From NCBI GenBank assembly GCA_973895155.1, contig OZ316893.1:22913844-22977843 (forward strand): a stretch of 64,000 nucleotides of DNA, read 5' to 3'. The notes beneath the pieces were generated by a model, which saw only the letters and a program-made list of their open reading frames with translations, was not told the DNA's origin and searched no databases. Source of the stretch: Marsupella aquatica (taxonomy: Eukaryota > Plantae > Marchantiophyta). The position numbers and the translations under genes are program-made. Below are positions 4,752 to 37,600 of the stretch, piece by piece (position 1 is the stretch's first letter; each line of letters starts with the position of its first letter).

Positions 4752-4800
4752 TGAAATCCTCACCTTGTCTATCATTTCACAATGTGCTGACCACAATTTT
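3247..4800 (-). repeat. Intragenic ~400-bp (~133-aa) high-identity TPR-like repeat units
   Basis: ttcccttcagtctgaa(t/c)tcc recurs at ~3622, ~4022 and ~4421 (and at ~1466 and ~1867 in the duplicate). Confidence 0.85.
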
Positions 4801-14225: not shown

Positions 14226-15208
14226 TGTACGATCATGTACGACATTGCATTTGGATAGTTTTCATTGGTCTTCCTCTGGTTCTATGTTTTTTTTCAATTT
14301 CCTCTCCTTGTGTATTTTTTTCATTTTCTTCTAGTTGTGTATTTTTTATTCATTGTCTTAAGGTGTGTGTTTTTTCATTTTTTTTGTGTGTACGATCATG
14401 TACGGTGGTGTAGAAAAAAACACACAGCAACATATTGGACGCTTGGTACAATATGTTGCCACATGTTTTTCCACCATATTTTTTTTGCGTGCAACTTTTT
14501 TATTGTAATTCTTGAGGGATGTTTTTTAATTAATTCTCAAGTCTAGAATATTTTCTCAAGTGCTAACTTTTTGTATAGAAGTACAGGGAAGATTTGTTTT
14601 GCTACCTGGTTCTAAAGTGTGAACTTTTTGTTGCATATGACTCGGGGTGTGCAATTTTGGGTCATAAATCATGTTCAATTTTTTTTTACAAAAAGTACAA
14701 AATTGGTGAAAAAAAACACAAAACATGGGAAAATGCACAAACAAAAAACCCGTCAACATATTGTACACGGTAGCAGAACAATCATCAGTCTAGTATTTGT
14801 GCTTAGAGTGTACTCATTGGGATATCTGATCAGGCATCTGATCGAAGTAAATTTGATGTACCTCGCCATTATGGCTAAAATGTCTATAGCATCCTATGTC
14901 TAGAGTCTACGCATTGGGACTTCTGATCGGATACATTTTCACCCTTTTGAACATAGTAAGAATGTTGATACATTTTGTTGTAGAGTGTTCCACAAAATTC
15001 AAGAATCAGAGCTTCAGGCTGACACAGTATCTGGCTTGCACAAAACGGGCAGACCTTTGATCTATCCAAGAAGAGAATTTTTGACCAGATTCTTATCTTT
15101 TCAGTTACTTTGGATCACCTCAACGCAATGTCAGCTTCTGTTGGATCGACCCGGAGACATGCTCGCCTTGCTGGTGCTAGAATGCTATTACAACAAGAAC
15201 ATATTAAA

Positions 15209-18200
15209 CACAGTGACGGACCAAATGAGAAGTGTGACCACACTTCTCGTTTTGCCCGCGGCGGAAAATTTTTCTAAGGCAAAAAAGTCTTGGGTACGGA
15301 ATTAGGATTCCCCCTAAAAACTAGTTTTCAGATTTTAAAAAATGGGAAAAATCGACACGAATACGAAGATGGGATACGGCGTATCCCATTTCGGATCCAA
15401 CCGCGGAATTCCAAAAAAATAAAACTAACGCAGTAAAAGTGCCGATATCGGTTTACCCTGTAAGAATATTCCCAAACAATTCTTATCAACGGTAATATTT
15501 AATCGACTGCGATGCAACTGCAGTCAAAAACTAACCACGGTCAGGGAGAAAACTATAAATAGGAGATCTCCGATTGAAAATTTTCCGCTCATTTTTTCTC
15601 GCTCTGCATCCTCTTCCTCTTGTCGAATGCACACCATCTATACAAATTTGTATTCCTTGAAAATCAGATTTGACTAATAGGTGATAATCTTTATGGAAAT
15701 GGCGAGGACGAATCCCAAATGGGATACGGTGTATCCCGTTTGGGATTCAACCTTCAAATGTCAAGTTTTTGTATCTCTTTAGCCAAAAAAGGAGGTTGAA
15801 TGCGAAGTAGGATACGGGGTATCCCATATCGCATCCAACCTCCGAATATGAAGCATCTTAGTTTCCAAATGTCAAAATCTCAACGTTGAATGCGAAATGG
15901 GATACGGCGTATCCCATTTGGGATTCAACCTTCAAATGTCCAATTTTTGTTTCTCTATAGCTAAAAAAGGAAGTTGGATGCGAAGTGGGATACGGGGTAT
16001 CCCATATCGGATCCAACCTCCAAATATGAAGCATCTTAGTTTGCAAATGTCAAAACCTCAATGTTGAATGCAAAATGAGATACCTCGTATCCCAATTAGG
16101 ATTCCACCTGCAAATCACGTGTAACATAGTGACGGACCAAACAAGAAGTGTGGTCACACTTCTTGTTTTGCCCGCGGCGGAAAAAAATTCTAAGGCAAAA
16201 ACGTACTGGATATGGAATTGGTATTCCCTCTAAAAACCCAGATTTTAGATTTTAAAAACGAGAAAAAACAACTTGAATCCGAAGCTGGGATACGGCGTAT
16301 CCCATTTTGGATCCCACCGCGGTTTTCCAAAAAGAAAAAACAACAAACGCAGTAAAAGGGGCAAGGTCATTTTACCCATCAAGAATATTCCTAGAAAATT
16401 CTTTTTAACGGTAACTTTTAACAGACTACGATGAAACTGCAGTTAGAAATTGACCACGGTCAAGGGCAAACTATAAATAGGAAAGCCATGATCAAATATT
16501 TCTGCTCATTTCTTCTCACTCCCGCATCCTCTTGCGCCCCCGAGAATCCACACTCTCTATGCAAATTTATATCCCCCCAAATCAAACTAGAATCTGAACA
16601 AGTGAGAATGATATATCTTTTTGGAAATGATGAGGACGAATCCCAAATGGGATACCATTTGGGATTCAATCTTCAAAAATCCAGTTTGGGTATCTTAAAC
16701 GTGAAAAAATGAGATTGGATGCAAAGTGGGATACCCTGTATCCCACTTTGCATTCAACCTCTGAATATGAAGCATTTAGGTGCAAAATGCAAGAAATTCA
16801 AGGTTGAATGCAAAATGGGATACCGCGTATCCCATTTCAGATTCAACCGATGAATCACATGCATTTTAGAATCAAAAGATAGAAAAATCAATGTTGAATG
16901 CAAAGTGGGATACCAAGTATCCCATTTGGTATTCAACCTCTGAATATCTCACGTTAGGTCTGAAAGGCAGAGGTTGAATGTGAAGTGGGATACTGGGTAT
17001 CTCACAATAAACACAGTGATGAACCAAATGAGGAATGGGAATCCACAAGCCGTAAGTTTAGGAGTTGCATACGAAATGGGATACCACGTATCCTACTTTG
17101 GATTCAATCCAAGGATATGAGGCTTTTGGAATGCACAAGCCATAAATTGAGAAATTCAATCCAAAACTAGTGAATACCGGGTCATTCTTAACTTTGAGCC
17201 CCTAAGCTTTCAATTGTTCTTTCAAAGTCAAATCCAAAGACCCTATCTAGCTGCCTGAGAATCTTGAAATGATCCAAATTCATACTTAACATCTTCATCA
17301 CTAGTTGTGACAAGAATTGATATGAAAACAATGAAAGATGGACTAAGATATGATAAGATTAAGTTCTGGGGTGAAATTATAAAATTACAAAAACTTAAGT
17401 TTGTACCCTCTCACGCTTTGGAAGCCATATCTTTATCGGTATTTATCCAAATTCCTTATAATTGATACCGTTAGAAAGAAGAGCTTGAGATTTTTCAGCC
17501 GCTTTACTCGGCGTTGCAAAAATAGAAAAAGAGAAAAATCTGAAATCAGGCAAAATCTCGCGAAAAAATCAGATTGCATTGTAAAAAGATCACAAATGAT
17601 CAAAACTTCAAGAGGAATACCAAGTGGGATACCAAGTATCCCATGTAGTATTCAAACATGTTATTTCACAAATCTAGAAAGGAAAAAGTCATAAAACCTT
17701 GTATGAATACCAAGTGGGATCCATGGATCCCACATTTGGTATAAGAACATGTTGTTTTATCCCATTTGGTATAAGAACATGTTATTTTACAAATCAAGAA
17801 CTTTACAAAGAGTGATAAGAATTTTACAAAGACCAAATGAAATCCAATTTGGTATTCAAATGTGAAAATGGATGAGTGACTTGTGACCGAGGGCCAATCC
17901 GGAACTTTGAATCTGAGGTGGGATCCACAAACCCACTTGGTATTTGCCTCCATTTTTAGGTAGGTCTGTTGATTGGTCCTACATATTTTGAAAGAGTAAA
18001 AAATGGATGTGATTGGGGTTGTGCTGAGCAAGGAAAAATCCAAAATTGTTTTGGAGTTGAATCAACAAATGGGACTCATGGATCCGTGTCGGTATGGATC
18101 TGTGTCGGTATGGATCTGTGTCGGTATTCAAACCTCAATATTGAGGTGCGAGGTGTGGCAAGGGCAAATTTTGGCGGGTGAATACCAAATGGGATCCGTG

Positions 18201-19289
18201 GATCCGTGTTGGTATTCAAACCTCAATATCAAGGTGCAAGGTGCGGCAAGGGCAAATTTTGGCAGGCGAATACCAAATGGGATCCATGGTTCATCCTTGG
18301 TTTTGAGTGAGTTATTTTGGACTTGTTTAGAAAAATGGGATACGTGGATCCCTATTGGCATTCCCTGATTGGTCCGTACAAGGGTTTTTTTAAAGTGAGT
18401 CTATCTTTTCAAGGAACGCTGAAATTTAAATTGTAGATCTTCGAGGAAGTCGCCGTGGATCCCAGTTGGTCTTCAAACTAGAATATCAAGGTATGCAATG
18501 CAAAAAGTTCAAAATGTAGAGGTTGAATACTAGATGAGATCCATGGATCCCATTTGGTATTCATCCTCCTGTTTTCCCGATGAGTTTTTGGACTTGCAAA
18601 AAAAAATGGGATCCATGGATCTCAGTTGGTATTCATGTCGAAAGATCTCCTGATGCAAAGTTGCAGGTGGAAAACATTGAGGTTGAATACGAGAGTGGAT
18701 ACTTGGATCCCGTCTCGTATTCATCATGCGTTATGGGCTAAAATATTTCCAAAGATATCGTCGGGTTAACTTAACTAACTGTGTGGGTCAACTGTAGTCC
18801 GCGGTCAGTTTTTTGCAGTTTTTGGTTTTACCGCAGTTAAAAATTCAAATATTTTAAACCCGAGGTTAAATGGAAGCGTCAAGAGAATGATTTGGTGCGG
18901 TTTTCGTTCACGTTCAACCGTTGAATCCGAAATGGGATACGCTGTATCCCATTTTCAGTTTGCCATTTTGATTGCAAAAATGAAATCTTGTGTTTTCCTA
19001 GTTTTGTTTGACGCTCGGATTTAGCTTTTAGAAGGATCACGTGAAAAGCATTGTTTTTCTAGGTTTTGGAATTTACTCTTTTTTTAGATGAAGTGTCTCG
19101 GAATTCTGGAATGTAACAATTCTTTGTTTTTGTGTCGATAGTATCTCGATTTGAAATCCGATGTTGGATGCGATTTTGGATTCATCCTCAAAATAGCATT
19201 TTTGATCTTAATTTTAGTGATTTTTTGTCGTTTTTTGCAAAATCAAAAACACACTTCTCGTTTGGTGGTCATACTTCTCGTTTGGTCCG
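15209..19289 (+). mobile_element. Non-autonomous TIR DNA element with CACAGTG ends and internal hairpin arrays (left-arm copy; last 8 nt of right TIR missing)
   Basis: Starts CACAGTGACGGACCAAATGAGAAGTGTGACCAC and ends GTGGTCATACTTCTCGTTTGGTCCG. Many ~40-bp palindromes with GGGATAC..GTATCCC or GGGATCC..GGATCCC cores; no transposase ORF. Confidence 0.75.
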
Positions 19290-22200
19290 ATAGTGTGTTT
19301 ATGGCCTCCCCGACATGTTCTAGTGGAGGATCCGGTACCTCGGCTTCATTACTGGTTGTCCCGGCCTCGGCCTTGCCATCCCCACTTCCTAGGACTGGTG
19401 GATCCACCGCCGTGTCGATGCCGGAGGTTGGTGCCGGGTTTACCTTCTCGGTCACAACGACTTGAGAAGCTGTATAACTCCCAGACCCAGAAGGTTTTCG
19501 CTTCTTCTTCTTCCCTATTTCGACAGCTGGTTCCTTCTCCTTGCCACTTACCTCCGGCACCAAGGTGAGTGTCTCGACTTATCCTGCGGCCAGTACTACC
19601 CCTGGCAACTGGGTTGCCCCAATTGGAGTTGGACCTGATGAAGCCAAGCATTTAAATACTACGGCTTGTTTCTTCAGCCGCTCTGTTTGGTTGTCGGCCC
19701 GCCGCTGTAGGTTCTCCATCTTCCTCGTGATTTCCTCCAACTCCTCCTCGGTCTCGTCCAGGTCCTTGCACGCCTCCTCCAGCTCCACTTTGGCTTCCTC
19801 CAATTCTTTCTGGGCTTCCTCCAATTCCTTCTTTAAGGTAGCCCTCTCCTCCTGGGTTTCTCTTAGCTCCTTGTCGAGCTCCGTTACGACCTCAGACTCC
19901 ATCTTATTCATCTTGGCATAAGTCTGGTCGAGCTGGTTGTCTTTCTCCCGCATGTCGGCCTTGAAGCTGACCGTCAGGGATGTAAGCTCCTGCTGCAGCG
20001 CAATAATCCCTTGATAGGATTTCCCTAACTCGGCCTCCTTCTGTCCTAGGGCTCCGCGGATATCCTCGAGTTCCCCCTTCAACGCCCTCTCCCTTCTCTA
20101 AGTCTCCGCCATGGCCCGGTTGTTGGATGCTATGTGGGCCTCCTCTGCGTCTCTCAGCTCTCGCTTCCACTTCTCCCTCTCTTTGACCGCCTCGGCCAAC
20201 TCTCCTTGGGTCCGAGTCAGTTTATCTTTGATAATGTGATTGTCAGACTGCGCGGTATCCAACTGCCCCTGCATGATGTTTAGCTCATGCCGCTTGATCC
20301 GTAGCTCATCTTGGGCTTTCTTGGCCGTCTTCAGGTCTTCCACCTCGGCTTCCATCTCCCTAAGCCGCCGGATGACCTCGTCCTTCTTGCTTCTCTCCAA
20401 AGCCACCGCCTCTTCTAATCGGCACTTCTCCAACATCTCCCTCTGGAAAAAGGGTCCCTGATCCAACTCCTCCCCAAAGATGCTGAGCGCAAGTTCCCCA
20501 CACATTTCTCCGTACTCCATGGCTCTATCTTTAGCATAGGTGGAGTAAGTCGAAGTCATCGGCATCAACCACCGCGGCCTCTGTTCCCAAACCGTCTTGC
20601 GGATCTCTTCTATGGTGGCAAGAGGGTTGCTTCTTCTTTTGGCCAGCCGCCTGATGTCCTCCAGCCAATCTCCTCCTGGCAAATCTTTTTCCCTAGCCAG
20701 GGCTGCCTTCTCTTCCTCCCTAAGTCGCTCCTCAAACTCTTGTGCGGTCTGCTTTATGCCGTCAAAGCTTGGGGAAGCGACATCTGGTGGGGGAGACTCG
20801 GGGCTACTCTGCTGGGTGGGGTCCCCTCGAACTACTCTTGGAATCGTGGGCATAAACCGGCCACAGGTCCTTACTCCTGGAACATGATGATCCGACCCAT
20901 AGCCGGAGTTATCATGGCTGTAGTCCTCCACCACCTCCTCCACTGCTTGGACTCCCGGGTTCCCCCTCTCTTCTCCGCGGGTAGGAGCCTTAGGCTGTTC
21001 TGCCTCAGATTCAGAGCTTGAGGCTCCCACATACATTCGAACTCCCGGCTCGTGTTCCGGCCTCCTCCTCTCCTTGGCTCTGGTAAAGGGGTTTTCCTTC
21101 ATGAGTCGTCTTAGGCCTACCTCTGGGGCAGCGTCATGTACCGGTGGTGTTGCCATTGCCGGTGCTGGTGCCATTTGCTTTTCCTTCTCTAGCAATTTCA
21201 GCAGATTCTGCATGCCTGGTTGCTGCATCGGCAAGTCTTCTTTTCTTGGCCTAAACACCTGTTCAATTGTAGGACTAGCAAGCTGGTTGGGCTTCTCTGC
21301 TACTGGCCTCTGTTCCGGAACTTCCTCTGGTGCCCTTACCTGTAGGGGAAGTACTGGGGCAAAGGTCTGACCTCTTGCATACCGGCATAACAGCGGCATA
21401 TGATAGCCAAGCTGGGACACGCTTCCCATGCCGATCACCTGTTGTTCCTCCTTCAAGATCTTCTTCAGTTGGTTGAGGAGGTACCCGTTGTAGTCCCGGC
21501 TTGGGTCTGGCCTCTCTACCAGGTAGACCTGTGCCTTGCCGATCTCTGCTCTCGGCAAGTTGCAATGCATGGTCACCCGCAAGAAATCGATCATCTCCCC
21601 AATGTGTGGGTTGGTGCAGGTGTTCTGGAAGAAGCCATTCTTCATTGATGGCCCTGGGAACGACCGGAACTCCTTGTCCGACAAGGTCTTCCTGGTATCG
21701 ACCTTGGTTTTATTGCCCATCGGCAAGCCAAACACTTCGGCGATCAACCGGGGAGTGAGATAGAAATCCTTCCCATAGACCCTCGTGGAATTGGTCTCGG
21801 GCTCCCATGATCCCACGAATTCTAATAAGTCTGAGTCCGGCACCTCCGGCTTCAGCCATGGTAATTTTACGAAGGCTTCCAAGCCGGATCCGGCCTTGAA
21901 GCCCTGGTACTTCTTGGTCTACATGGCCGTAAAGCATGCATCCTCCTCGCGTGCAAAATGTAGTTGCACTTCCTCTGGTAGGGTCGCCGCCCAACCTTTC
22001 CAGGTGTCATCCTTGGTTGGAATGACATTGATGGGGTCGACCTCCTCCTCTTCGGCTTCTGCTTGCCTCCTGTTCTGCTGCTCTGCTGGCTTCCTTGGTG
22101 CCGTCGACCTTGTTCTTTTTGTCGGGGTGGCCTCTTTGTTGTTTCCTTTCCTCTTCATTTCGGCTGCCCTGGATGTTTCACCTAGCATGGTTGCCTTGGT

Positions 22201-22400
22201 CCACCTCTCTATGCTACCCTTCAACTCCCAGTGTATGTCGTTGCAGCTCTTGATGGCTTCCCGGATGCCGATGATTCTGTTTTCGCAAAACAGAAGGTCG
22301 TCGAGCTAATTGGCAGTAGGAGTCCACAAGAACTCGGCCTTGATGAGTTCTCCTCCTAAGAAGGCAGATTTCTATAGCTCCCATAGTCGAGTGAGCTCCT
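19290..22400 (-). pseudogene. Long retroelement-associated extra ORF (plant-mobile-domain-like N-part plus coiled coil), broken by in-frame stops
   Basis: ORFs 21919-22224, 20098-21882, 19579-20082 and 19243-19563 share one frame, separated by single TAG/TAA codons. FVGSW...RVYGKDFYLTPRLIAEVFGLP resembles FVKNY...RLRGRNISLTEERLKMIFGLP at 52501. The natural end appears to lie at 45494 after undoing the inversion. Confidence 0.7.
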
Positions 22401-25400
22401 GCCATACTCGAGCTGCTCTTTCTGATTCTTGGTCCTCGTAGGTCCCAATGTACTCAGTTGCCCGTTCGAACAGGCATCCCCAAAAATGTGCCGCTTGATT
22501 GACGTTGCTCATATCCTCCTTACGTCAATCGTCTGTATCTACTCCCGCCCAGAGTGCTTGCCTAAGCAGCTGACAGTAGTTGGCCTCCCGTAGTTGTCTA
22601 CCCAGTTCATGCTTGCAAATGAGCCACCATTCCTCGTGAGCGGTCCTTACCCCTCTCCCTGCCTGGTCTTCCCTCCCGTTGGTTACCCCTAGCCGCCGAC
22701 ACTTAGCGTGCCCTAACCCTAATCGTGTTCTCTCCCCCTGCGTCCTGACTTCCGGCCTCGGCCCGGGTTCCATAGTCACCCTTAATTTTTTATACTTTCC
22801 TTGTTTTGTTACTATCCTAATGTGTTTCCAGGGTACACTCCCGTTTTTACCTTTGGCTGGCCTAGTGATTCCTGGCTAGGCATCACAAGATTACATTGAA
22901 AGATCAGATGCAAACTCTGCTGTGCGGACTGTGCAATCGGAAGTTTGTTTCGTGTCGATTGAGTTGGCGACGGCTCGTGGAAATCGTTTGAAGCTGTTGC
23001 GTGGATCCGTGGTAGCTTGGATCATACTGAATAGATTGTTAGTATTTTGATCTGCTGTCGTTTGTATCTCATTGCCGGGCTGTTTTGAGAAGAGAGATCA
23101 CAGATCGTTGAAGATCTTGCCAGATTTGCAAGGAGACAGAGTGTCGATCTGGGATGTGCTGCCATTTGACAGACAGTATGCTGCTATTTGCATTTGTCTG
23201 TAGTAGATCAGGCTTGTTGAGGTGTGGATGTTGATAGATCGGGCCTACATCGTCATCGTATGTTCTTCTGTTTGGCCGATCTGCTATTTTCGCAAGAGAA
23301 ACAGCCGCGGATGTTGCTGAATCGCGCAATGACACCGCCTGTGTAGCATTTTGCAGAACTTGCATGTCAACCTCTGCGTTTTGTTGAAGAAACAGAACTT
23401 TGAATGTTGTTGTTTTGGTAGCGGATGACTGTGCGGAGGCGGGCTGCTGCTGATCAGTAGCGCGGAAGCATCGCTTGCGTGTTTGCAAAGGGAAACGTCT
23501 CAGGAATGTTGCCCATTTCAGACGGGTGGATCGCGGATTCGTCGGCGCCGTCCACGAAGGAAACTCAAGGCCGAAGTCTGAATGTTGCCGAATCCGGAAC
23601 TCGATTCTGCATAGCAAAGCGTTGTAGGCGTGAAGGGCTCACTCTTTGGCTCATCTCGGCGTTGGCATGAAGGGCTCACTCTTTGGCTCATCTTGGCGTT
23701 TAAAGGCTTTGAGGCAACTCGTGGTTACTCGGGACGAGGGGCGTGAGGGCGGAGCGGGCCAGCAAGCCAGCTTGCTGGTACGTGAGGAGAATTGCAAGTG
23801 CTGCCATTTTGGAGTGGCAGATTTGGTGCATAACTACAAGTGAGAGGTCACCCATCCCAAAGCTATTTCCTTCCCCACGCGCTTAACTATGTGGTTCTTA
23901 AGTGCTCTTGTGTACACACACTCCTTTCCACTTTGATGTTAATGGGATGAGCACTTAGGCATTTTATACACATACTAGTTTGTTTAGATTGCCATTTTGG
24001 GGCAAATCATAAGCTCCCTTAAGGTTTTTGATGCTTCTGAATCCATCTAGATGCATGGATTGAACCAATTGTGCATGGATCCTTAGCTACAACATTGAAC
24101 ATTGAGAGGCCTATTATGAAGGCCCCACATTGAACATTATGAACATTGTTTGATTGATGTATGATCACTATTGATGTGGAGAGTTATTGTGGATCTCTTC
24201 TTGTTGATTGGATCCTCTCCACATATGCTTCCTATTTATGCGCCATGTTAGTTTGGCGTGGGCGCTTGATTCTATAGGAGTGATCCGGGTTTGCAACCGG
24301 ACATTCTAGTTGTGCTACGTATTTCTCTCCTGGTGATGTTGGAGTGATGCCCAACACACCATGGTGAGTGCTTGTGTTGCTGACAGGAACAGATTGCCCT
24401 TAGGGTTAGCATATAGATTAGGTTAGGTTGGTCACCACAGATTCTTCTGGTGCTGCTGGGTTACCCGATGGACGATGGACCGGTTTCACTCGGAGTGGGG
24501 CGCAGTTTTGGCCAGCGACATTGGTAGCAGTCAGTAGCACAGCTTCAGACAGTGATTCTGATGAGGACTCTGTGAGCAGTTCTCCTCGTCATCAGGTGAT
24601 TGCACCTTTGTTGTGGGATATGGAAGAGATGTACGGGGCTACAAAGGGCCCATGACGATACTCTGGTGCAGTTGGCATGATTGATCTGGATGACTTCATC
24701 CAGGAGTTTGATACGTGGTGCGATATGCAGACATTGCGTAATGCCACATTGTTTACCCCTTTCATAGCATGGAAGGGATTATTTCAGCATTTATAGGGGC
24801 CACCCATGGATGACTACCATGAGTTTTGGAAGGCTCATTTGGTTGAGATTGAGACATGGAGGCAGCATTGGTCACCTAATTACGTGTCCATTACCTATGG
24901 CACTAGTGCGGCTGCCCAACCCATTGCCACAGCTGCTGTTTCTTCTAGCAGCACTAGCCAGAGTGGCACCATCCACCACCAGCACTCCAGCAACATCCAC
25001 CGCCACTCCTGCCGGTGTGATTGTGATAGGGACTGGAGTTGCACCAGCATTTAATCCTATGGTGGAATTCTTTGAGGTACTGAAGCAGAACTATTAGGGT
25101 GTGAGAACTGATAAGTTGAAGGGTCTCTAGGAGTTTCAGCGCAAGACTAGAGAGAGTCTACGTGAGGCATACACTCGTATGCACAGGTTGATCACTGTCA
25201 CCAAGGGAGTGACAGAGGCTCAGGCAGTCTAGTTTTGGTATGCAATTCTGGACAGAGAATTGCGACGCAGAGTGAGAGATGTCACTCTACTTAGGGATGC
25301 AAATCCCACATTAGCACTTGTTTTTACCCTTTCTGTGCGCATTGAGCTCAATATGGTGAATGAGAAGGTGGTGACTTCCGGATTTGCCAAGGAAGCACCA

Positions 25401-27282
25401 AAGGCTGCATCTACATCCACACCACAGCCTACTGCATGAAAGAGCCAGAGGGAGAAGCCTACTGCACGAGAGTTTACCATCCAGAGACCTGTGCCCTCTT
25501 ATGCTGGACAGCAGTCAGGATGTTGGACCTGTGGTGGGGATCATGCATAGAGATATTTCCCAGATCATAGAGGATCAGGGGGAGCATCGGCACCTGATCA
25601 GTAACAGTGGGATCACTGTGGAGCTCCTAGACACACCAAGGATAGGTGTTTCTCACTCCATCCTGAGTTACGGAGAGGAGGATCCCGTACACATGATCAA
25701 GGAAGAGGAGGAGGAGGTAGAGGTGGTGGACGTGGTCGTGGCATGCCACATGCAGGGAGACAGGGAGATGACGCTGCCCCTGCTGTAACCATAGATCCAA
25801 AGGATGCTAAGATTGCTCAATTGGAGCAACAACTAGCTGCCATGGCTAGTTCCTAGGTGAGACCTACTTCTGGTGATGGGGCATCTACATCCTATGGACC
25901 TTCCACATCCCATGGTCCTTCCACATCTTATGGAGCTAATGGAGACCTTGCCACCATGGGATTCATGTGTGGCACTACACATATTGATGCATCAGCAGCT
26001 TTGACACGTGGCCCGGTAGCCAAAGCTCTTGAGCCCCGAGGAGCAGTAGTGGAGCTAGATCCACAGAGGGGGGATGCACGTCGGCAGACAAAGCTTCCTC
26101 AGTCTTTTACATTGTCAGAGATAGTCTAGACTGCCTCTATGAACTCGATTTGGACAAACCCTGGCGTGGGTAAGTTGGCAAAATCAGGTAGTGATGCAGT
26201 AGGGATGACAGGTACCCTGCTGGGGGTGGCTACTGCCATAGTACGCACCCCATTATTTTTAGCGACAGACATGCTACACTTGGGAGTTGGTCCTACAAAA
26301 GTGTTCAGATTGGCAGCTACACTCTATGAGGACACTCCAGTGGTTGCTTCCCATGCAGAAGCAGCTTGCAGTGTTGAAGCAGTAAAGACCATGCCACCTA
26401 CTACTACTAGTGAGATATGGCATGCAGTATCAGCGAGGTTGGTGGATTTACTAGCATCCCCTGCATTTGAGAGGACTAGGTTTAATTAAACCTAGTGTTG
26501 TGTCATTGGATAATCGGAGTGGTATCTTTCGATTAGTTGGGCCTTCTGGAACAGTATACCAGCTAGAGAGAGTTACTGGATAATGGTGCTCAGCCCTTGA
26601 TGTTGGGTAAGTCTGCCATACGTGGATTGTGATTGCGTCCAGAGGATTTGGAGGATTGTCCCTTTCTCATTCAGACTTCATTGGGGGGACCTACACCTAC
26701 ACAACACATTACCAGGAGACCTCTTGATTTGAGGATTCAGGAAGGTCATACCATAGATAGCTCACAGATACAGGTGCGAGCTATTTTGACTAAGGAAGAG
26801 TCATATGATGTGTTGGTGGGATGTACAGTGCTCTACCCCATGGGATTTATTCTTGATTTTTGGGAGGAATCAGTGTCATATAGACCTGATTGGCAGTCAG
26901 GAGATGCTCGATTGAGCAAATTACCAGTGAGATTTAGTGGACCTGTGGGAGGCCCTAAATCCACACCATTGTCTTTGGTAGCATTCAGTGGTGTAATTGC
27001 TGGACCTGATGATTTGATTGAGGGTAATGCGCATGCAGCAGATGTTCCACCATTGGAAGAGTCTCATGAGGAGCACATCATGCGGGGATTACCTATTGGC
27101 AGTGTTGTGCCACCAGTGTGGGGCACTGCACAGGCCTTGCCACAGGCAGCAGCACGATTGGTACATGATGCATGGCGTCATGCTTTTACACCATAGTTAG
27201 GAGCAGAGCAGTCTCTTGCAGATGGACCGGTGACTCTTTCACCATGGGATACCACTCCTATTGCTTGGCATATCCACCAGAG

Positions 27283-28220
27283 GGTATTTGTTTGTTGGAT
27301 CTTTTTGGTGGGATTAGCACTGGATTGGCTGCTGTTCTTCAGGCAAGAATTCTTGTGCGTCGTTATTTGTATGTGGAGACAGATGAGACAGCACGGAGGG
27401 TCTCATTGCGACATGTGGCTATGTTGGTGGATAGATATCCACAATTGCTGCTAGTGGATGCTAGCTGTTCATGGTTATCAGCATGCACTACCTGCTGATA
27501 TTTCATTGTTGGGGGCGGATCATCTGCATCGTGTTGGCCCCATTGATTTGGTGATTGTTGGTTGGCCATGTCAGGGCCAATCTAGAGCTGGCGTTGGGCA
27601 TGGACTTCATGATCCACGCTCTGCATTGTTTTGGGAGATGTTATGGGTGTTGCGTCATCTCTAGCTACATCAGACATAGTCTCTAGCATACATTTTGGAG
27701 AATGTGCCATTGTTAGGTGATGATCGTAGTCGGATTGTTGCCAGTGTTCACCAGGTGAGGTCTTGGATTGGACCTGCTGTGTTATTGAATGCTGCACATG
27801 TGGGTTCTCGTGCACATCATCCACGCTTGTGGTGGACTAATTTGATCCCATGTGAGGCGCTGAAGCGTGCATTTGACAGCATTCCATGCTCACCAGCCTT
27901 AGTGGTGGATGATATTTTGGATCTAGGGCGTCGTGCACAGGGTGTGACCCAACCTGATAGACCTCCATTGGTAGTGGTCAATGCAGTTGGATGCCCACGT
28001 TGTGCATTACCCACTCTTGTAAGCCACTCTGCTTCATATGCATTCAGAGCAGGTGGCCCTGGACTTGTGTGGGACACAGCTCTCCAGCAGTTAGTGGAGC
28101 CTACTGCTGATGAGAGAGAGCGTGCTATGGGATTTTTGACTGGCACCACTATAGTTGCCTCTGTGTCAGAGGGTTTGCGGCGCCAGGTTCTTGGTCAAGC
28201 AATGGATGTGAATTGTTTGA
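27283..28220 (+). pseudogene. DNMT3-like C5 cytosine DNA methyltransferase domain inside the retrotransposon pol
   Basis: Motif I LLDLFGGISTG, II YVETD, IV IDLVIVGWPCQ, VI ENV, VIII SRAHHPRLWWTNL, IX ERERAMGFLTGTT and X RRQVLGQAM in canonical order, across a frameshift (~27470) and stops (~27662-27690). Confidence 0.92.
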
Positions 28221-28651
28221 CTCAGTTAGATTATCAGCTTGGGAGTAGTTGAACAGTTGCGGATGCGCTTTGCTGGAATTACTGATTGTCCATTGGTGAG
28301 CTTGCGGTCCACTGAGACAGTATTGACCACAACTGGGGGCGAGCAGACAGTCCATGGACCTATGGCAGGATTGGCCAAGGCTGGACAGATTGTTGAGCAA
28401 GAAGGGATTGCTCAATCTACTGCTAAATAGCAATCATCGACTATCTCTTCTACCCTACAAAGAGATATTAGGGATTTGGTGGAGAGTTGGGAACCACAGC
28501 TTGGCCCTAAGTTAACAGGGGAGGAGAGACGTCGCATGCATCGATTCCTGAAGAGTTATTGGAATTGTTTTGCATTCAGCATGAGGATTTGGGGATATTG
28601 AAGGGCCCTGGTATTCAGATTGAATTGGCTAGTGATGCGCCAATCTTTCGT

Positions 28652-28948
28652 CTCGGGGGTCTCACTACATGGGGACCTCCCCATCACCTACGACGTTTTT
28701 AGGCCTTGGACCCCCTAAAATGTAAGAAAAAAATATTATTTTTTAACCCCTATAAAGTTGGAATATTCTTGGAATATTCCAAAAATTGGATTAAAAAGGC
28801 CCTAATGTTCTTATAAGTCTCAAAATTGAATTTAAAAGACCCTATTGTTCTTCTACAAAAATTCTTAAGTCTTCCTTTACAACCAATAAAATGACCCTAT
28901 CCTTCGTCGCACGTGATATGCCATTTTTGTGGAAGTGAAACCCCCGAG
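28652..28948 (+). mobile_element. ~297-bp MITE, copy 2, inserted in the gypsy RT
   Basis: CTCGGGGGTCTCACT ... AGTGAAACCCCCGAG; TSD tctttcgt. Confidence 0.93.
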
Positions 28949-31734
28949 TCTTTCGTAGATCATACCGTTATAGTGACATGGAGAGAGCTTTGATTCAAAG
29001 CAAAACTCAAGATTTGTTGGAGGCTGGATTGGTGGAGATTTCATATGGGGAGTATGCATCTGCCATAGTGATGCCAGCCAAGAAAGATGTGCATGGCAAT
29101 TACACAGATAGACGCATGTGTGGTGATTACAGACCTATTAATCGCCAGACAAAATCTGATCGATATGCCATGCCCACACCTAAGGAGATCTTTGATGCTG
29201 TGGGGCATGCAAAAGTTTTTAGTTCATTGGATCTAAGGGCAGGGTACCATGATCAGCTTCCAATTAGGCATGCTGACAGGTCCAAGACAACGTTCTGGGG
29301 GATTGATTTCTATGGCAAAGATTGTTTGTATCAGTGGTAACTATTCTTACCATTTGGGTTGAAGAATGCACCAGCTGAGTTCCAGAGAGTCATGGATCGA
29401 ATCCTTGCAGGTTTGGATTTTGTCAGATGTTATATTGATGATATTTTGGTCTATTCTTCTACAGTGGAAGAACATCAGCAGCACTTGCAGATTGTGTTGG
29501 AGAGATTGAGAGCACATGGGTTGAAGCTCCATCCTGGCAAGTGTAAGTTCTTCCAAGACCAGATTGAGTATTTGGGCCAGTCCACACTATATACCCAGGG
29601 GGATTGGGTGTACAGCAGACTAAAGTGGAGGCCATTACACAGATTCCTTGTCCTACTGATGTGAGCAGAGTTTGTGCATTCTTGGGATTGGCGAGCTACT
29701 ACAGGAGGTATGTAAAAGGATTTAGCCAGCTTGCTAAACCTTTAACCATACTCACTAAGTTGGATCAGGAATGGACTTGGGGTGATGACCAGGAGCATAC
29801 CTTTCAGGAGTTGAAGCAAAGGTTGGCATCATCCCCTATTTTGAGAAGACCCATTTTAGGCAGACCATTTCAGCTACACACTGATTGGAGTGGAGTAGGA
29901 CTTGGAGCAGTGCTAACTCAGAAAGATGATGAAGGGCATGAGTTTGTTGTGGCATATGCCAGTAGATCAAACAATTCAGCAGAGGCTAAGTATAGCTCTT
30001 ATGAGGGAGAGTGTTTGGCAGCAGTTTGAGCTGTGGCACACTTCCGCTGTTACTTGTTTGGTAATCCTTTCACTTTGATCACTGATCACCAGCCGCTCAA
30101 GTGGTTAATGGAGTCTGACAAGCTTACTAGGAAGCTTGCAAGATGGGCATTGTTGTTGTAGGAATATGATTTCTAGGTTGTACATAGACCTGGAAAGGTG
30201 AACTTGGATGCAGATGGGTTGAGCCGCAACCCATGTACCAGTCAGCAGGATGAGACTGGAGCCAGATGGCATGATGAGTCAGATAAAGAGATGGTGCCAG
30301 GATGGCATGCATCTGCCTTTCTTTGTTGGGTGCTAGCATACAGTGGATCTGTGGACTCTACCTCATTGGATGGAGTGGATGATGAGTCTTCAGATGTGGA
30401 TGTTGGTGAGGTAACTGTTGGACAACAAGATATTCACAATGATGTGAGAGTGTTGGAATATCTGCGCAGTGGTTCTATTGTTGGCAGTGTTGATGCCAAA
30501 GAACGTGACAGGGTTCTACAGAGAGCCAAGAGGTTTTGATGGGAGGGAAACCATCTTCTGAGAGTATTGCATGATGGTAGGGTGTTGGTGGTACCAAAAC
30601 CATCACAACGAGTACATTTGGTGCGACATGCACACGAGGAGTTAGGTCACTTTGGTGTGAAGCGCACTTACAGCTTGCTGCAAACACAGTATTGGTGGCG
30701 TGGTATGCACACTCATGTCCAGCAGTTGATAGCTAAGTGTGTGGTATGTGATAGAGTGAGAGCATCATTTAATGCTCCCACTCCCCAGTTGCACCCGTTG
30801 CCGATCATGGGTTTGGGATATCGTTGGAGTTTGGATTTTGCTGGTCCATTACCTCTTACCCAACGTCATAATCGATATGTTTTGGTCATGGTGGAGCACT
30901 TCTCCAAGTGGATTGAGCTAGTGGCGTTGCCAGATAAAACCAGTGGAGGAGTTGCTGCTACATTTTTGGATCGTGTACTCAATCATTTTGGAGCACCAGT
31001 TGAGGTGTTGACTGATCAGGGAACTGAGTTCCGTGGAGAGTTTGAGAGTTTGTGTGAACAAGCTTTGATTGATCATCGTACTACCTCTCGTGATCATCAT
31101 GAGGCAGATGGATTAGCTGAGAGAGTTGTGCAAACTGTGAAGAGAGGATTGCGTAAGTATGGCTTGCAGGTTGGTCATCTGGGAGATTGGGATCTCCAAC
31201 TACCTTGGTTAGCTATGGGCTACCGTTTCAGTCGGCAAGCATCACTTGCATCCTTCTCACGGACCTTACTTTTTGCTCTATGGTAGAGACCCAGATTTGC
31301 CACCAGCTATTCATCGTGATGCTGCACCAGTTGTGAACTTGGATGATCCTTATGTTTGGGTCAAGGTGTGTTCAGAGAGAGCATGGGTATTTCAGAGAGT
31401 GATGCCCATGGCTTCTGACAACCTTGCCATTGCCCAACATCGTGATACTTTGAGGTATGCCACTATTCGTGGAGGAGGTTACCGTGCAAGCATTCGACGA
31501 TTTCACCCTGGTGATTATGTTTATTTGCAACAGACAGCACCCACAACACTTGATGTGACCGCAGGCCGGACAATCTTACGTGTTCGGGAAGTGTTGCCTT
31601 CTGGTGTCCTGATGTTGGAGGGACGCGATGGTATGGTTTGGAAGGATCATGTGCGCAACTGTGCACCATGTCACCTTCCCAACATTGATGGTACAGTAGA
31701 TCCAAGCTTGGCACATGTTCGTGCTGGCTTGAAA

Positions 31735-31875
31735 TGTATGTTGTGTGGATCTGCTCAGGGAGCAGCTACTATGTTGATTTGTGATAAGTGTTCTAGAGGA
31801 TGGCACATGTCATGTTTGACACCACCATTACAGGTGATTCCTAGTGGATCATGGTTGTGTCCTCAGTGTCGGTGA
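31735..31875 (+). other. PHD finger at the integrase C-terminus
   Basis: CMLC...MLICDKCSRGWHMSCLTPPLQVIPSGSWLCPQC is a C4HC3 PHD pattern with the conserved W before the last CxxC. Confidence 0.93.
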
Positions 31876-32050
31876 AGCCGACTAGTTATCATTGGTGTTC
31901 TCTTGGCAGATATGGATTGTAGGTAGGTGATCGATGGGGCTCACTTGCACCCGGCCTCCTGATCTTCACACTTAAAAAGGTGTATATCAACCTTGTAGAA
32001 CTCATGGCTAGCTAGAGTCAGGGGACCTTACTCCCAGCTAGGGGGGCGAT

Positions 32051-32962
32051 TGTGGGTTTTGGACATGTGTGGACATGAGTTTCACTTGTATTCCATTCTC
32101 TTGTGTTTGAGATGTGGCAGTGTGACTATGTCTGGATGTATGTGACAAGCGATGTATGTTGTGTAGCGATGTGTATGCGCACGATAGCTGTCACACCATT
32201 CTAGGTAGTGTTAGAGTGTATCATACTATCTAGATCCGTATGTTTGGTATGTGTGCTATATGAGCCGATAAGGTTCCGTCAGGTTTGTGTGAGAGGGTAC
32301 TTCTCACTTGTGAGGCATTGAAAGGTCATCTTTCAATGTTGAGCCTTGGAGAGAGAGGAGCTTGAGTATGGCTATGGTGGCTGTGAGCTCCGCTTGTGTA
32401 ACGTGGATTCCTTGAGTAGTGCAAGGTGCGTTGGCTTGACATACGTGTGTGATCGGATCAGTGCGGGATCGATGGGGTATTGTTGACCGGGATCGTTGTG
32501 CCGATTGTATTGAGATTATTGTGGGTTTTGGACATGTGTGGACATGAGTTCCACTTGTATTTCATTCTCGGGGGTCTCACTATATGGGGACCTCCCCATC
32601 GCCTGCGACGTTTTTAGGGCTCGGACCCCCTAAAATGTAAGAAAAAAAATTTATTTATTAACCCCTATAAAGTTGGAATATTCTTGGAATATTCTAAAAA
32701 TTGGATTAAAAAGGCCCTAATGTTCTTATAAGTCTCAAAATTGAATTTAAAAGACCCTATTGTTCTTCTACAAAAATTCTTAAGTCTTCCCTTACAACCA
32801 ATAAAATGACCCTATCCTTCGTCGCACGTGATATGCCATTTTTGTGGAAGTGAAACCCCCAAGATTTCATTCTCTCGTGTTTGAGATGTGGCAGTGTGAC
32901 TATGTCTGGATGTATGTGACAAGCGATGTATGTTGTGTAGCGATGTGTATGCGCACGACACA
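32051..32962 (+). repeat. Two ~140-bp TGTG...CACA direct repeats (32051-32195; 32520-32962 with MITE) at the 3' end of the DNMT retroelement
   Basis: tgtgggttttggacatgtgtggacatgagtt...gatgtgtatgcgcacga occurs twice; the first copy follows a polypurine-like tract. Confidence 0.8.
32567..32863 (+). mobile_element. ~297-bp MITE, copy 3
   Basis: Same TIRs; TSD atttcatt. Confidence 0.93.
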
Positions 32963-33055
32963 TGGGTAAGATTCTGTCACCTTTCTTTGAATGATTGTTT
33001 GAATTCATTTAATATTTGGAATCCTTGTTTCTAATTGTAAGGTTCCCTTTTGTAG

Positions 33056-34197
33056 AAAGATACCACCTCCTGGAAAAAGAAGGGAGATGAGGAAGGCAAA
33101 GATCTCAAGTCATTCCCGGACAAATTCAATGCGCATATTGTGCAAGCGCAAAATTGGCTATCCATGAAGACTTCTAGTTGGCAAACCCAAGAGGGGGAAC
33201 TTCATCCAAATTCTTTTGAGCATCCAGAGTTTGGTGATGTGCACTATGATATTTTTACTCATGATGCACAGCAATTACACGAGGTGGTTCCAGGTCGGGC
33301 TTACACATTAGCTTTAGTGGATATTCCCTACGGGTTTGCATTGCCTGGATGTCTTCATGAGGACACTATTGGATGGGGAATTGAGGAGATCACAAAAATG
33401 GTCCAATCTTTCAAGGTGGCTACTACTGCGAAGTTGTGGCATATTATCATTCACCACAGCCTTGACCAATATGAGGCCATCAAGACCGTTTTGAAAGCGG
33501 AGTGTAATGGAGGGTTCCAGAATTGTGTGTGGTAAGAAATATTTATTTTTGAAAAAAACAATTATTAGTTATTCATGATTTCATGAACCATGTTTCTAAG
33601 TTTAAATGACTCCTTGACTTTTTGTGACTTTTCAGGGTTAAGGATAATGTGAAGAATGCTGGTGGGCCAAGATTGAACAGCAATTTTGAGTGCTTTACAA
33701 TTGGCTTTCACAGTCAAGATGGTAAACGGTCATTGGAGCACTTCAATTTTGACACAAATGAATCAAGGAACAATATGGTTGTATGCGCAGCTGTGACTAA
33801 GAAGCTGAAACACAATGGGGATAACAAGGCAGTGAATGTCTATCAGAAACCACGTGCATTGTTAGATTGGGAAGTGAGTCATTTTAGTCAGGTTGGAGAC
33901 TGGGTTTTGGATATTTGTTCAGGATCAGGGACTGGGACAACCTCCTCCTTGGCCATGGGGAGACATTGCGTTGCCATTGAGATTGACGAGCGACAGAGCA
34001 GTGTGTTGAAAGGGAGGATTCTTAACCTTGCAGATAACATTGAAGAGGAAGATGGACAGGGGGAGACGGATGAGGAGAGTGAGGAAGACATTCCTCAGGC
34101 CGGAGAGGATAGCGTGGTTGACGATGCCACAATTGTTCCAGAATTGACGACAGGGACTTCCAGAACCGAGGAAGGGGAAGCGGTCCCTTTGGATTAG
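33056..34197 (+). CDS. Beta-class amino-DNA methyltransferase (N4-cytosine/N6-adenine type); last two exons, 5' part missing
   Basis: Exons 33056-33531 and 33636-34197 joined by a GT-AG intron (TG|gtaag...ttcag|G restores NCVWVKDN). Motif IV LALVDIPYG precedes YQKPRALL and motif I GDWVLDICSGSGT..AMGRHCVAIEID, which is the beta order. An upstream intron gtaag(32966)...tgtag(33055) is also visible. 345 codons with no stop; acidic tail. Confidence 0.88.
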
Positions 34198-34668
34198 ACT
34201 AGGTAAATAGAGGGACTCGTAGCATTTGAAACCACTTGGGGTTAAGTTGGGTTATATTTTGTAAAACTTTGAGTTTGACTTAAACTCTAATCGATGAGTT
34301 TGATTTTGACTACTTTTATAAAGTGCATATTTCAAGGTTTATACAATTGTGAGAATATCATATAAGATATGCTTAGATTTTGGTGGTAAAATTCTCTTGA
34401 GTCTAGTTTGGAAAATACATACCATTTTTTGGTACACATTTTTGAATATCATGAAGATTTTGAAAAGAGAAATAAGGCTTTGGACTCATCCCTTAAGGCT
34501 TCTTGTTAAGTGCCTAGTGTACGTAGCCAGGAGAGTCCATGGCCACTCTGTTTCTAAGTAGTTGTGTATCGTCTATGCTATTGCAGAGAATGTAGTAAGG
34601 AAGGAAAAGATAGTAAGTATCGTAATCAGAAATAAGACTTCTGGGGCCACTGCTGAGAATACTAATAA

Positions 34669-37600
34669 CACAGTGACGGACCAAACGAGAAGTATGACCA
34701 CCAAACGAGAAGTGTGTTTTTGATTTCGCAAAAAACGGCGAAAAATCACTAAAATTAAGATCAAAAATGCTATTTTGAGGATGAATCCAAAATCGCATCC
34801 AACATCGGATTTCAAATCGAGATACTATCGACACAAAAACAAAGAATTGTTACATTCCAGAATTCCGAGACACTTCATCTAAAAAAAGAGTAAATTCCAA
34901 AACCTAGAAAAACAATGCTTTTCACGTGATCCTTCTAAAAGCTAAATCCGAGCGTCAAACAAAACTAGGAAAACACAAGATTTCATTTTTGCAATCAAAA
35001 TGGCAAACTGAAAATGGGATACGGTGTATCCCATTTCGGATTCAACCGTTGAACGTGAACGAAAACCGCACCAAATCATTCTCTTGACGCTTCCATTTAA
35101 CCTCGGGTTTTAAATATTTGAATTTTTAACTGCGGTAAAACCAAAAACTGCAAAAAACTGACCGCGGACTACAGTCAACCCACACAGTTAGTTAAGTTAA
35201 CCCGACGATATCTTTGGAAATATTTTAGCCCATAACGCATGATGAATACGAGACGGGATCCAAGTATCCACTCTCGTATTCAACCTCAATGTTTTCCACA
35301 TGCAACTTTGCATCAGGAGATCTTTCGACATGAATACCAACTGAGATCCATGGATCCCATTTTTTTTTGCAAGTCCAAAAACTCATCGGGAAAACAGGAG
35401 GATGAATACCAGATGGGATCCATGGATCTCATCTAGTATTCAACCTCTACATTTTGAACTTTTTGCATTGCATACCTTGATATTCTAGTTTGAAGACCAA
35501 CTGGGATCCACGGCGACTTCCTCAAAAATCTATAATTTAAATTTCAGCGTTCCTTGAAAAGACAGACTCTCACTTTAAAAAAACCCTCGTACGGACCAAT
35601 CAGGGAATGCCAATAAGGATCCACGTATCCCATTTTTCTAAACAAGTCCAAAATAACTCACTCAAAACCAAGGATGAACCATGGATCCCATTTGGTATTC
35701 GCCTGCCAAAATTTGCCCTTGCCGCACCTTGCACCTTGATATTGAGGTTTGAATACCAACACGGATCCACAGATCCCATTTGGTATTCACCCGCCAAAAT
35801 TTGCCCTTGCCACACCTCGCACCTCAATATTGAGGTTTGAATACCGACACAGATCCATACCGACACAGATCCATACCGACACGGATCCATGAGTCTCATT
35901 TGTTGATTCAACTCCAAAACAATTTTGGATTTTTCCTTGCTCAGCACAACCCCAATCACATCCATTTTTTACTCTTTCAAAATATGTAGGACCAATCAAT
36001 AGACCTACCTAAAAATGGAGGCAAATACCAAGTGGGTTTGTGGATCCCACCTCAGATTCAAAGTTCCGGATTGGCCCTCGGTCACAAGTCACTCATCCAT
36101 TTTCACATTTGAATACCAAATTGGATTTCATTTGGTCTTTGTAAAATTCTTATCACTCTTTGTAAAGTTCTTGATTTGTAAAATAACATGTTCTTATACC
36201 AAATGTGGGATCCATGGATCCCACTTGGTATTCATACAAGGTTTTATGACTTTTTCCTTTCTAGATTTGTGAAATAACATGTTTGAATACTACATGGGAT
36301 ACTTGGTATCCCACTTGGTATTCCTCTTGAAGTTTTGATCATTTGTGATCTTTTTACAATGCAATCTGATTTTTTTGCGAGATTTTGCCTGATTTCAGAT
36401 TTTTCTCTTTTTCTATTTTTGCAACGCCGAGTAAAGCGGCTGAAAAATCTCAAGCTCTTCTTTCTAACGGTATCAATTATAAGGAATTTGGATAAATACC
36501 GATAAAGATATGACTTCCAAAGCGTGAGAGGGTACAAACTTAAGTTTTTGTAATTTTATAATTTCACCCCAGAACTTAATCTTATCATATCTTAGTCCAT
36601 CTTTCATCGTTTTCATATCAATTCTTGTCACAACTAGTGATGAAGATGTTAAGTATGAATTTGGATCATTTCAAGATTCTCAGGCAGCTAGATAGGGTCT
36701 TTGGATTTGACTTTGAAAGAACAATTGAAAGCTTAGGGGCTCAAAGTTAAGAATGACCCGGTATTCACTAGTTTTGGATTGAATTTCTCAATTTATGGCT
36801 TGTGCATTCCAAAAGCCTCATATCCTTGGATTGAATCCAAAGTAGGATACGTGGTATCCCATTTCGTATGCAACTCCTGAACTTACGGCTTGTGGATTCC
36901 CATTCCTCATTTGGTTCATCACTGTGTTTATTGTGAGATACCCAGTATCCCACTTCACATTCAACCTCTGCCTTTCAGACCTAACGTGAGATATTCAGAG
37001 GTTGAATACCAAATGGGATACTTGGTATCCCACTTTGCATTCAACATTGATTTTTCTATCTTTTGATTCTAAAATGCATGTGATTCATCGGTTGAATCTG
37101 AAATGGGATACGCGGTATCCCATTTTGCATTCAACCTTGAATTTCTTGCATTTTGCACCTAAATGCTTCATATTCAGAGGTTGAATGCAAAGTGGGATAC
37201 AGGGTATCCCACTTTGCATCCAATCTCATTTTTTCACGTTTAAGATACCCAAACTGGATTTTTGAAGATTGAATCCCAAATGGTATCCCATTTGGGATTC
37301 GTCCTCATCATTTCCAAAAAGATATATCATTCTCACTTGTTCAGATTCTAGTTTGATTTGGGGGGATATAAATTTGCATAGAGAGTGTGGATTCTCGGGG
37401 GCGCAAGAGGATGCGGGAGTGAGAAGAAATGAGCAGAAATATTTGATCATGGCTTTCCTATTTATAGTTTGCCCTTGACCGTGGTCAATTTCTAACTGCA
37501 GTTTCATCGTAGTCAATTAAAAGTTACCGTTAAAAAGAATTTTCTAGGAATATTCTTGATGGGTAAAATGACCTTGCCCCTTTTACTGCGTTTGTTGTTT

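Follow-up and report, generated by a model that had tools for sequence, protein, structure and literature searches.

A decayed Ty3/gypsy retrotransposon of the liverwort Marsupella aquatica with a DNMT3-like methyltransferase, a conserved stop before reverse transcriptase and permuted ends

Architecture of the element in the window

We analysed a stretch of 64,000 nt from the liverwort Marsupella aquatica (GCA_973895155.1, contig OZ316893.1, positions 22,913,844 to 22,977,843 of the forward strand), hereafter called the window. It contains a decayed Ty3/gypsy retrotransposon at 22888-32960, encoding Gag, protease (PR), a DNMT3-like C5-methyltransferase (DNMT), reverse transcriptase (RT), RNase H (RH), integrase (IN) and a C-terminal PHD finger (Table 1). 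An earlier sequence-only reading had described such an element; absent from it were two features on which we concentrate here, a readthrough-type stop between DNMT and RT, and permuted ends without a conventional pair of long terminal repeats (LTRs). The span it had given, 24430..32962, was too short on the left, as the element starts about 1.5 kb further upstream (22888), and it ends at 32960.

From a three-frame translation and Pfam matches we obtained the order PR (26573), DNMT, RT, RH, IN and PHD, with E-values of 7e-08 for DNA_methylase, 1e-28 for RVT_1, 3e-35 for RT_RNaseH and 1.5e-11 for PHD; Integrase_H2C2 and rve also matched, and the Gag region of the window gave no Pfam match. By its Gag-PR-RT-RH-IN order with RVT_1 and a DDE integrase, the element belongs to Ty3/gypsy. 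The copy is dead, as the earlier reading had it: in-frame stops and frame changes occur all along it, and two 298-nt miniature inverted-repeat transposable elements (MITEs) interrupt the RT N-terminus and the repeat B2. Summed contig depth in four runs was similar over gag, DNMT, RT, IN and PHD and, in two runs, far above that of the flanks (depth is not copy number).

Next, we compared the methyltransferase with known enzymes. It lies between PR and RT on the pol strand, as had been proposed; however, it is not part of a continuous Pol, but ends the first open reading frame (ORF1) before the conserved stop. The full set of C5-methyltransferase motifs was recovered in unpermuted order with the catalytic Cys and Glu (I at 27298, II at 27370, IV (GWPCQ) at 27560, VI (ENV) at 27692-27706, VIII at 27812, IX at 28112 and X at 28178), and so was the C4HC3 PHD finger at the end of the integrase. 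A frame change at ∼27463-27500 separates motifs I-II from motifs IV-X; the closest homologue, P0001 (85% identity), does not have this break (P numbers denote proteins and L numbers metagenome loci). A search for longer proteins returned 108 homologues, and the nearest named relatives were from Marchantia polymorpha, Calypogeia fissa and Sphagnum (52-73% identity).

The resemblance to DNMT3 had been suggested from motifs VIII-X. We observed that the family profile scored 101 bits against DNMT3A in the PDB, compared with 49-56 for DRM-type enzymes, 41 for M.HhaI and 35 for DNMT2. The predicted structure of P0001 had a mean predicted local distance difference test score of 78.6, and of more than 90 over most of the DNMT domain; with this model the top rows of Foldseek were all DNMT3 (DNMT3A/B/C; TM-target ∼0.8), and VIA-align gave DNMT3B first (Z 28.1, root-mean-square deviation 2.7, 279 residues aligned), followed by M.MpeI (Z 25.5). 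By profile and by the ranking of the predicted fold, the transposon enzyme is therefore classed as DNMT3-like; the placement rests on these two rankings, because our trees contained no host DNMT3. One detail of the motif likeness did not stand: the His in motif VIII of the window copy is a lesion, since Arg fills this column in 122 of 130 domains.

A one-off capture of the DNMT, which the sequence-only reading had allowed for, is ruled out, as the domain recurs across the family. The loss of catalytic PC/ENV residues that it had also considered was not seen: the catalytic Cys is conserved in 127/130 and the motif VI Glu in 128/130 DNMT domains, although the Pro of motif IV is replaced by Glu in 15/130 and the Asn of motif VI by His in 10/130. 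Of 21 pairs compared, 15 were unsaturated, and in all but one of these the ratio of nonsynonymous to synonymous substitution rates was 0.09-0.23. The remaining one, L016-L026, consists of two decayed sister copies (ratio ∼1), and the rows for the RT of L016 are distorted by a frame break. Measured on these alignments, the DNMT is under purifying selection. The observed/expected ratio of CG was 0.33 in the window element and 0.67 in the neighbouring Gypsy element without DNMT. This depletion is no proof of self-methylation, because four relatives (L041, L044, L050 and L068) have ratios of 0.55-0.80, and we rejected it as non-specific.

The PHD finger was present in 25 of 27 loci with sequence beyond the integrase. 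Pfam scans of the window and its relatives gave no match to a chromodomain at the integrase C-terminus, where the PHD lies instead. Among the best 60 of 92 PDB hits, the fingers of CHD4, DPF3, KMT2C/D, ATXR5, KDM5, PHF21A and UHRF1 were closest and AIRE was also included, whereas no proteins named ING, BPTF or TAF3 occurred among these 60. In 35 of the 36 PHD fingers listed, the residue two positions before the His is Gly. A cage Trp at this position presumably marks another ligand class, and we take fingers without it to be of the type that binds unmodified H3, which we also assume to be the ligand of the CHD4, KDM5-PHD1, PHF21A, UHRF1 and AIRE finger types. By analogy with these presumed ligands, the transposon PHD would read unmodified H3.

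Relatives were found in Marchantia, Calypogeia, Sphagnum, Klebsormidium and chlorophytes. The DNMT profile matched 623 clusters at E≤1e-30 among 50%-identity representatives, a count that may include host enzymes; among the best 150 profile matches, 90 of 136 new proteins also carried RT or IN. The proposed DNMT and RT trees were built (DNMT: 63 rows, midpoint root, LG+G4; RT: 48 rows, quick method), and they agree. In the DNMT tree the window groups with P0001, Calypogeia, Marchantia, Sphagnum and L008 (support 100/100), inside an 18-row clade together with L041 and L044 (100/99). The Klebsormidium protein P0099, which is homologous to the window DNMT (E 7e-26), sits on a distant branch of this unrooted tree. 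Searches of viral contigs for relatives of the element found none.

A second architecture, RT-RH-DNMT-IN-PHD, was observed in P0070, P0111 (Hariotina), P0127 (Cymbomonas), L068 and L073, which form one clade on both trees. The pairing of a DNMT writer with a PHD reader, taken earlier for a land-plant feature, thus spans the green lineage and is no land-plant novelty, because both domains occur in these chlorophyte-type elements, where the DNMT follows RNase H and precedes integrase. Two other arrangements were seen in passing. P0129 is a Copia-type polyprotein (gag_pre-integrs, rve, SH3) with a related DNMT between a Gag knuckle and the protease, and in L020 a DNMT element is immediately followed, at 16106-18730, by another family that has a PHD and B-A-B ends.

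Table 1. Parts of the Ty3/gypsy element in the window (A and B, its terminal repeats)
Feature	Coordinates	Strand	Remarks
Remnant of 5' repeat A1 (last 5 nt)	22888..22892	+	Remainder of A1 not in window; LTR-like end of another, likely nested, element on the left
Predicted self-primer site, 12-nt complement of 3' arm of repeat A hairpin	22893..22904	+	Like arrangement in L050/L043 (17 nt), L041 (16 nt), L068 (12 nt)
Likely 5' leader, nested insertions possible	22905..24430	+	Spacing like A1-to-gag in L050/L054; contig depth far below that of coding part
Gag region of ORF1, two degenerate Cys/His knuckles (25521, 25647)	24430..26486	+	Broken by stops; tblastn with P0002
Retropepsin-type protease	26555..26890	+	P0001 model against retroviral proteases, Z 9-12; intact L041 matches Asp_protease_2 weakly (E 2e-4)
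DNMT3-like C5 cytosine methyltransferase, motifs I-X	27271..28222	+	Frame break ∼27463-27500; stops at 27662 and 27677
Conserved in-frame stop, TAG then CAA TCA (CARYYA context), end of ORF1	28428..28436	+	
RT (YIDD at 29431) and RNase H, start of ORF2	28437..30218	+	Frame breaks
298-nt MITE in RT N-terminus	28652..28948	.	Apparent 8-bp target duplication; contigs of 3/4 runs join across
Integrase: HHCC finger, DDE core (30828, 31011, 31110), GPY-like stretch (31261), C-terminal region	30540..31700	+	
C4HC3 PHD finger, end of ORF2	31732..31875	+	Finger residues 31735-31869
Polypurine-tract-like run immediately 5' of B1	32040..32048	+	
Repeat B1	32049..32186	+	96-98% identity to B2
Internal head-to-head junction of integrase-type ends: B end, 2-nt spacer, A start	32180..32193	+	One base decayed in window copy
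Repeat A2 with hairpin (32316-32338)	32189..32517	+	
Repeat B2, terminal CA = 3' terminus of element	32518..32960	+	Second MITE copy inside, 32566-32863

The conserved stop and the permuted ends

In the window, the TAG that separates DNMT from RT shares the frame of the RT start, and the last codon of P0001 corresponds to the one just before it. We surveyed 80 metagenome loci and the window (81 sequences), 46 of which could be anchored on the RT-start motif. A stop was found 16-24 codons 5' of this motif in 43 of them, directly followed by CAR-YY in 41/43, the background being 175 of 17,706 TAA/TAG triplets. The counts are not independent, as a single Sphagnum-like family supplies most loci and some loci sample the same insertion again; the stop occurs in about five distinct lineages (the window, L008, the Sphagnum-like family, L041/L042/L072 and L044). 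The proteins of Marchantia (P0002, P0004) and Calypogeia (P0005) end 98-100 residues past motif X, as do the Sphagnum-like loci.

The earlier reading had proposed a search for intact copies with one ORF. An intact copy, L041, was recovered, but with two ORFs in one frame split by the stop: 1369 codons (Gag-PR-DNMT), TAG-CAG-TTA and 1047 codons (RT-RH-IN-PHD). In the four runs, no variant of at least 5% was present at 28421-28436 among the 37 rows listed; five other stops of the window copy are read otherwise in most contigs. Comparison across the family indicates that the TAG at 28428-28430 is a family-wide feature and not decay, and ORF1 is therefore Gag-PR-DNMT. It is likely from this arrangement that RT-IN-PHD is made by stop readthrough, and hence the DNMT would be produced at the level of Gag. 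UAG-CARYYA is a known readthrough context of plant viruses (PMC4132726; here and below, citations refer to the accessible part of each source).

We then examined the ends. A sensitive self-alignment of the window found no conventional 5' LTR, and two full, equal LTRs flanking the coding region are not present; instead the 5' end consists of A only and the 3' end of B-A-B or B. The complete layout, A-ORFs-B-A-B, was observed in L050, L054 and L065. All 15 of the 5' ends found (14 distinct flanks) start with A alone, at TG, and the 3' ends terminate at the CA of B. Loci with both ends all had 4-bp target duplications (6/6; five exact, one with one mismatch). The TG..CA termini with target duplication were thus seen in relatives, the window retaining the 3' end only.

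Inside the element, the end of B meets the start of A head-to-head across 2 nt (CA-NN-TG), and these 2 nt are missing at the outer ends. The same junction lies 3' of the PHD in the far-diverged L020, L041, L044, L068 and L076. Sphagnum-like copies also have a recurrent match to this pattern within their DNMT coding sequence, and such rows were excluded from the junction count. The 3' end takes two forms. Full B-A-B ends were found in five loci (L017, L035, L050, L054, L065), and five others lack A2-B2 and stop at B1, which the purine tract precedes (L011, L018, L020, L031, L058). L031, of this A-internal-B form, has an exact target duplication. A self-repeat of L011 is unrelated to repeat B.

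Two candidate primer sites border the repeats. A G-rich purine tract lies immediately 5' of B1, and the complement of a hairpin arm of repeat A immediately 3' of A1; in the Sphagnum-like family the hairpin-arm site is ∼30 nt below a TATA-like box. The complements differ in sequence in each of four families, and in the shuffle control none reached 15 nt. The self-primer region of L050 folds at z −4.4. We located the 5' part of the window element by this prediction: a 17-nt string, in which the 12-nt complement follows the final 5 nt of A, occurs once in the 64 kb, at 22888, directly 3' of the LTR-like end of another element. A 10-nt match at 24090 was dropped in its favour. The window contains no tRNA genes. 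Rfam gave nothing above the gathering score in 19000-35000, so that a 5S-like stretch near 23840 has no support. From their sequence and position, we infer that the self-complementary site and the G-rich tract act as primers.

A possible replication route and its alternatives

Because the two primer sites flank B+A, reverse transcription of the ordinary kind would yield B-A-internal-B-A, a molecule that does not terminate in the integrase ends. Joining this product end to end and opening it at B|A gives the form seen in the genome, and A-internal-B is the form expected from a one-repeat circle. We propose the following route. Gag-PR-DNMT would be translated as ORF1, and occasional readthrough of the TAG would yield RT-RH-IN-PHD, so that many DNMT copies could enter each particle. 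Self-primed (Tf1-like) reverse transcription would then produce the linear B-A-internal-B-A. The ends of this complementary DNA (cDNA) would be joined, and integrase would cut the B|A junction, drop 2 nt and insert the permuted form. The packaged DNMT may methylate cytosines, likely CG, in the new cDNA. In the weakest step, the PHD might read unmodified H3 tails and bias insertion away from H3K4me3 promoters. Taken as a whole, the chain of stop readthrough, end-joined cDNA reopened by integrase and active DNMT appears to us slightly on the probable side.

Several observations weigh against this route. As to the stop, only 6/43 have the full CARYYA (window, L008, L041, L042, L044, L072); 33/43 have CAA-CCC followed by ATG, which could allow separate initiation. 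No nearby stop was found in 3/46 anchored sequences, and it is absent altogether from the lineages of P0050, P0109 and P0110, P0109 being a single open frame. The 16-nt variant-free stretch around the TAG is, alone, not beyond chance. As to the ends, all six loci with target duplications are from one Sphagnum-like family, several of them resampling one insertion. A 12-nt complement alone is modest, as 11 nt was reached by 10/200 shuffles for L068.

The joints between the repeats bear on a rival explanation, which keeps the proteins as above and does without a covalent circle: one more template jump as plus-strand synthesis finishes, or RNA running through B2, would give a linear A-internal-B-A-B that integrase only trims. 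Every copy read has a precise A2|B2 joint, which suits templating better than host end-joining, and the form A-B-A-internal-B was found in none of the 14 distinct 5' ends, although a symmetrical 2-LTR circle has two equal junctions. However, the outer borders of B+A coincide exactly with the purine tract and the self-primer site, so that B would be leftmost after ordinary reverse transcription. The five A-internal-B loci, including L031 with its exact duplication, are also as expected from one-LTR circles, but B x B recombination would yield the same form. We consider this templated linear route unlikely.

A second alternative concerns the enzyme. The DNMT could be kept as a structural, nucleic-acid-binding or self-restraining module that does not methylate cDNA, the stop setting only the Gag:Pol stoichiometry. 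The KnitGypsy-Dnmt3 enzyme of Klebsormidium nitens did not methylate in yeast, a result its authors call inconclusive (PMC5890265). The motif IV and VI replacements given above and the uneven CG depletion point the same way; of these observations, the yeast result and the CG values also weigh against our own route. In contrast, the SymbioDIRS-Dnmt3 enzymes methylate CG (PMC5890265), the predicted model has a complete DNMT3-like fold, and the catalytic Cys, the Glu and the motif VIII arginines are near-invariant over the 130 domains. We regard a non-methylating DNMT as improbable. We find it scarcely credible that decay or assembly has produced the layout as an artefact (one-off capture, random nonsense mutation, tandem or nested LTR pieces): the copy in the window does carry many mutations and is both nested and truncated, but the architecture is repeated in dozens of loci and the intact L041, and the conserved stop and ends with target duplications already contradict it.

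The circle route admits a wider reading, which we advance tentatively, as it falls short of probable. An ancient green-lineage Ty3/gypsy clade, from chlorophytes to bryophytes and with hundreds of protein clusters, would have dropped linear-end integration and placed the integrase ends head-to-head in its repeat. Its cDNA would be circularised and opened by the DDE integrase, as in IS3-type copy-out elements. The bryophyte branch would load its DNMT3 at capsid stoichiometry via readthrough and pre-methylate the circle, possibly including a CG in the integrase end.

We compared the family with known systems. PAT, Ngaro and TOC1 are DIRS-order elements with split direct repeats. SymbioDIRS-Dnmt3, of the same order, shares the A-coding-B-A-B layout and DNA methyltransferase cargo but has a tyrosine recombinase (PMC5890265), whereas our family has a DDE integrase, TG..CA ends and 4-bp duplications. 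In the intact L041 a tyrosine recombinase is absent, and rve and Integrase_H2C2 match instead. The closest precedent is KnitGypsy-Dnmt3 (de Mendoza et al. 2018, PMC5890265), a Gypsy element under purifying selection with a DNMT3-related domain in the Pol ORF, conserved catalytic residues and repeats as in a DIRS retrotransposon (A-coding-B-A-B in the figure legend). In the window clade, by contrast, the DNMT is in the same frame but followed by a conserved stop before RT. The DNMT of the K. nitens protein P0099 is on the distant branch. The accessible text of that paper says nothing of a PHD, of target duplications, of an internal junction, of self-priming or of a mechanism, though its Fig. 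4c may show the PHD and further parts of the ends.

The prototype foamy virus integrase cleaves the palindromic LTR-LTR junction of 2-LTR circles (PMC1180852), and both systems thus pair a retroviral-type integrase with a palindromic junction. There, however, the junction arises from ordinary LTR ends and the provirus has two normal LTRs; our elements have the palindrome as part of their repeat sequence, and they are permuted once integrated. For Chlamydomonas, published work has described PHD fingers in the Gypsy elements REM1 (PMC2774666) and Gypsy-7a_cRei, where they are proposed to guide insertion (bioRxiv 10.1101/2022.06.16.496473, PMC6673714). No DNMT is mentioned in the accessible parts of these two sources, and the left and right LTRs of Gypsy-7a are near-identical. 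The Tcn1/Tf1-sushi chromoviruses, which occur in moss and club-moss, are likewise self-primed instead of using a tRNA primer, but have a chromodomain and ordinary LTR pairs (PMC6317226). The EpiLTRs of Cymbomonas and Euglena also combine a methyltransferase with a chromatin reader in LTR elements; these are a DNMT4-sister enzyme, Dam and a chromodomain, and the authors set them apart from streptophyte Gypsy-DNMT3 (bioRxiv 10.64898/2026.05.21.726589).

Later papers mention streptophyte Gypsy-DNMT3 only briefly in their accessible text (PMC12344493; bioRxiv 10.64898/2026.05.21.726589). In the literature outside subscription journals, Repbase, figures and bioRxiv supplements, we found no account of bryophyte DNMT-gypsy members, in line with the sequence-only reading, nor of the readthrough stop or of a junction with target duplications. 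The DNMT cargo and repeat layout thus have a precedent in one alga, as far as the accessible text goes. What appears to be undescribed is the occurrence in bryophytes, the readthrough-type stop, and the sequence evidence of self-priming and of an integrase junction inside the element.

With these results, the range of Gypsy-borne DNMT3 grows beyond a single alga and takes in liverworts, peat moss and chlorophytes. Marchantia polymorpha is included, where methylation mutants and genetics make the role of a transposon's own DNMT testable. The conserved stop would predict the amount of enzyme packaged, and the permuted ends a circular integration substrate for a DDE integrase, a route long dismissed for retroviruses. 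The ends may also explain why an abundant family would escape, or be wrongly delimited in, surveys that need two equal LTRs together with a target duplication; REXdb demanded both, and its accessible text has no mention of PHD or methyltransferase (PMC6317226).

Neighbouring genes and repeats

The 3' end of the element lies 5 nt before the splice donor of an intron-containing N6/N4-methyltransferase gene (32961-34197, + strand; Pfam N6_N4_Mtase, E 1.8e-08), the 5' part of which is not in the window. From residue 104 it has 61-66% identity to Calypogeia fissa P0371, and its named matches are from Calypogeia only. This gene may be transposon-borne.

An inverted duplication with arms of ∼7.9 kb and 98-99% identity occupies 11446-19299 and 34667-45493. 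Its inner edges coincide with the terminal motif of a DNA transposon that is rich in repeats and likely non-autonomous; a further end of this transposon lies at 53536-54515. Alternative transposition likely caused the duplication. The right arm contains a very young ∼3-kb element with identical 143-nt TG..CA LTRs (38617-41608), inserted after the duplication.

Pieces of other Gypsy elements, mutually similar and with long antisense ORFs, are located at 19300-22887 and ∼46000-53500; the latter has RT and RNase H and no DNMT match. The 298-nt MITE is present in five copies (13930, 28652, 32566, 42712, 58908), which are 84-98% identical and have short inverted ends. A hydrolase-NB-ARC-LRR gene with repeated TPR-like modules (422-9537, − strand) resembles what we take to be the HNL class of bryophyte immune receptors.

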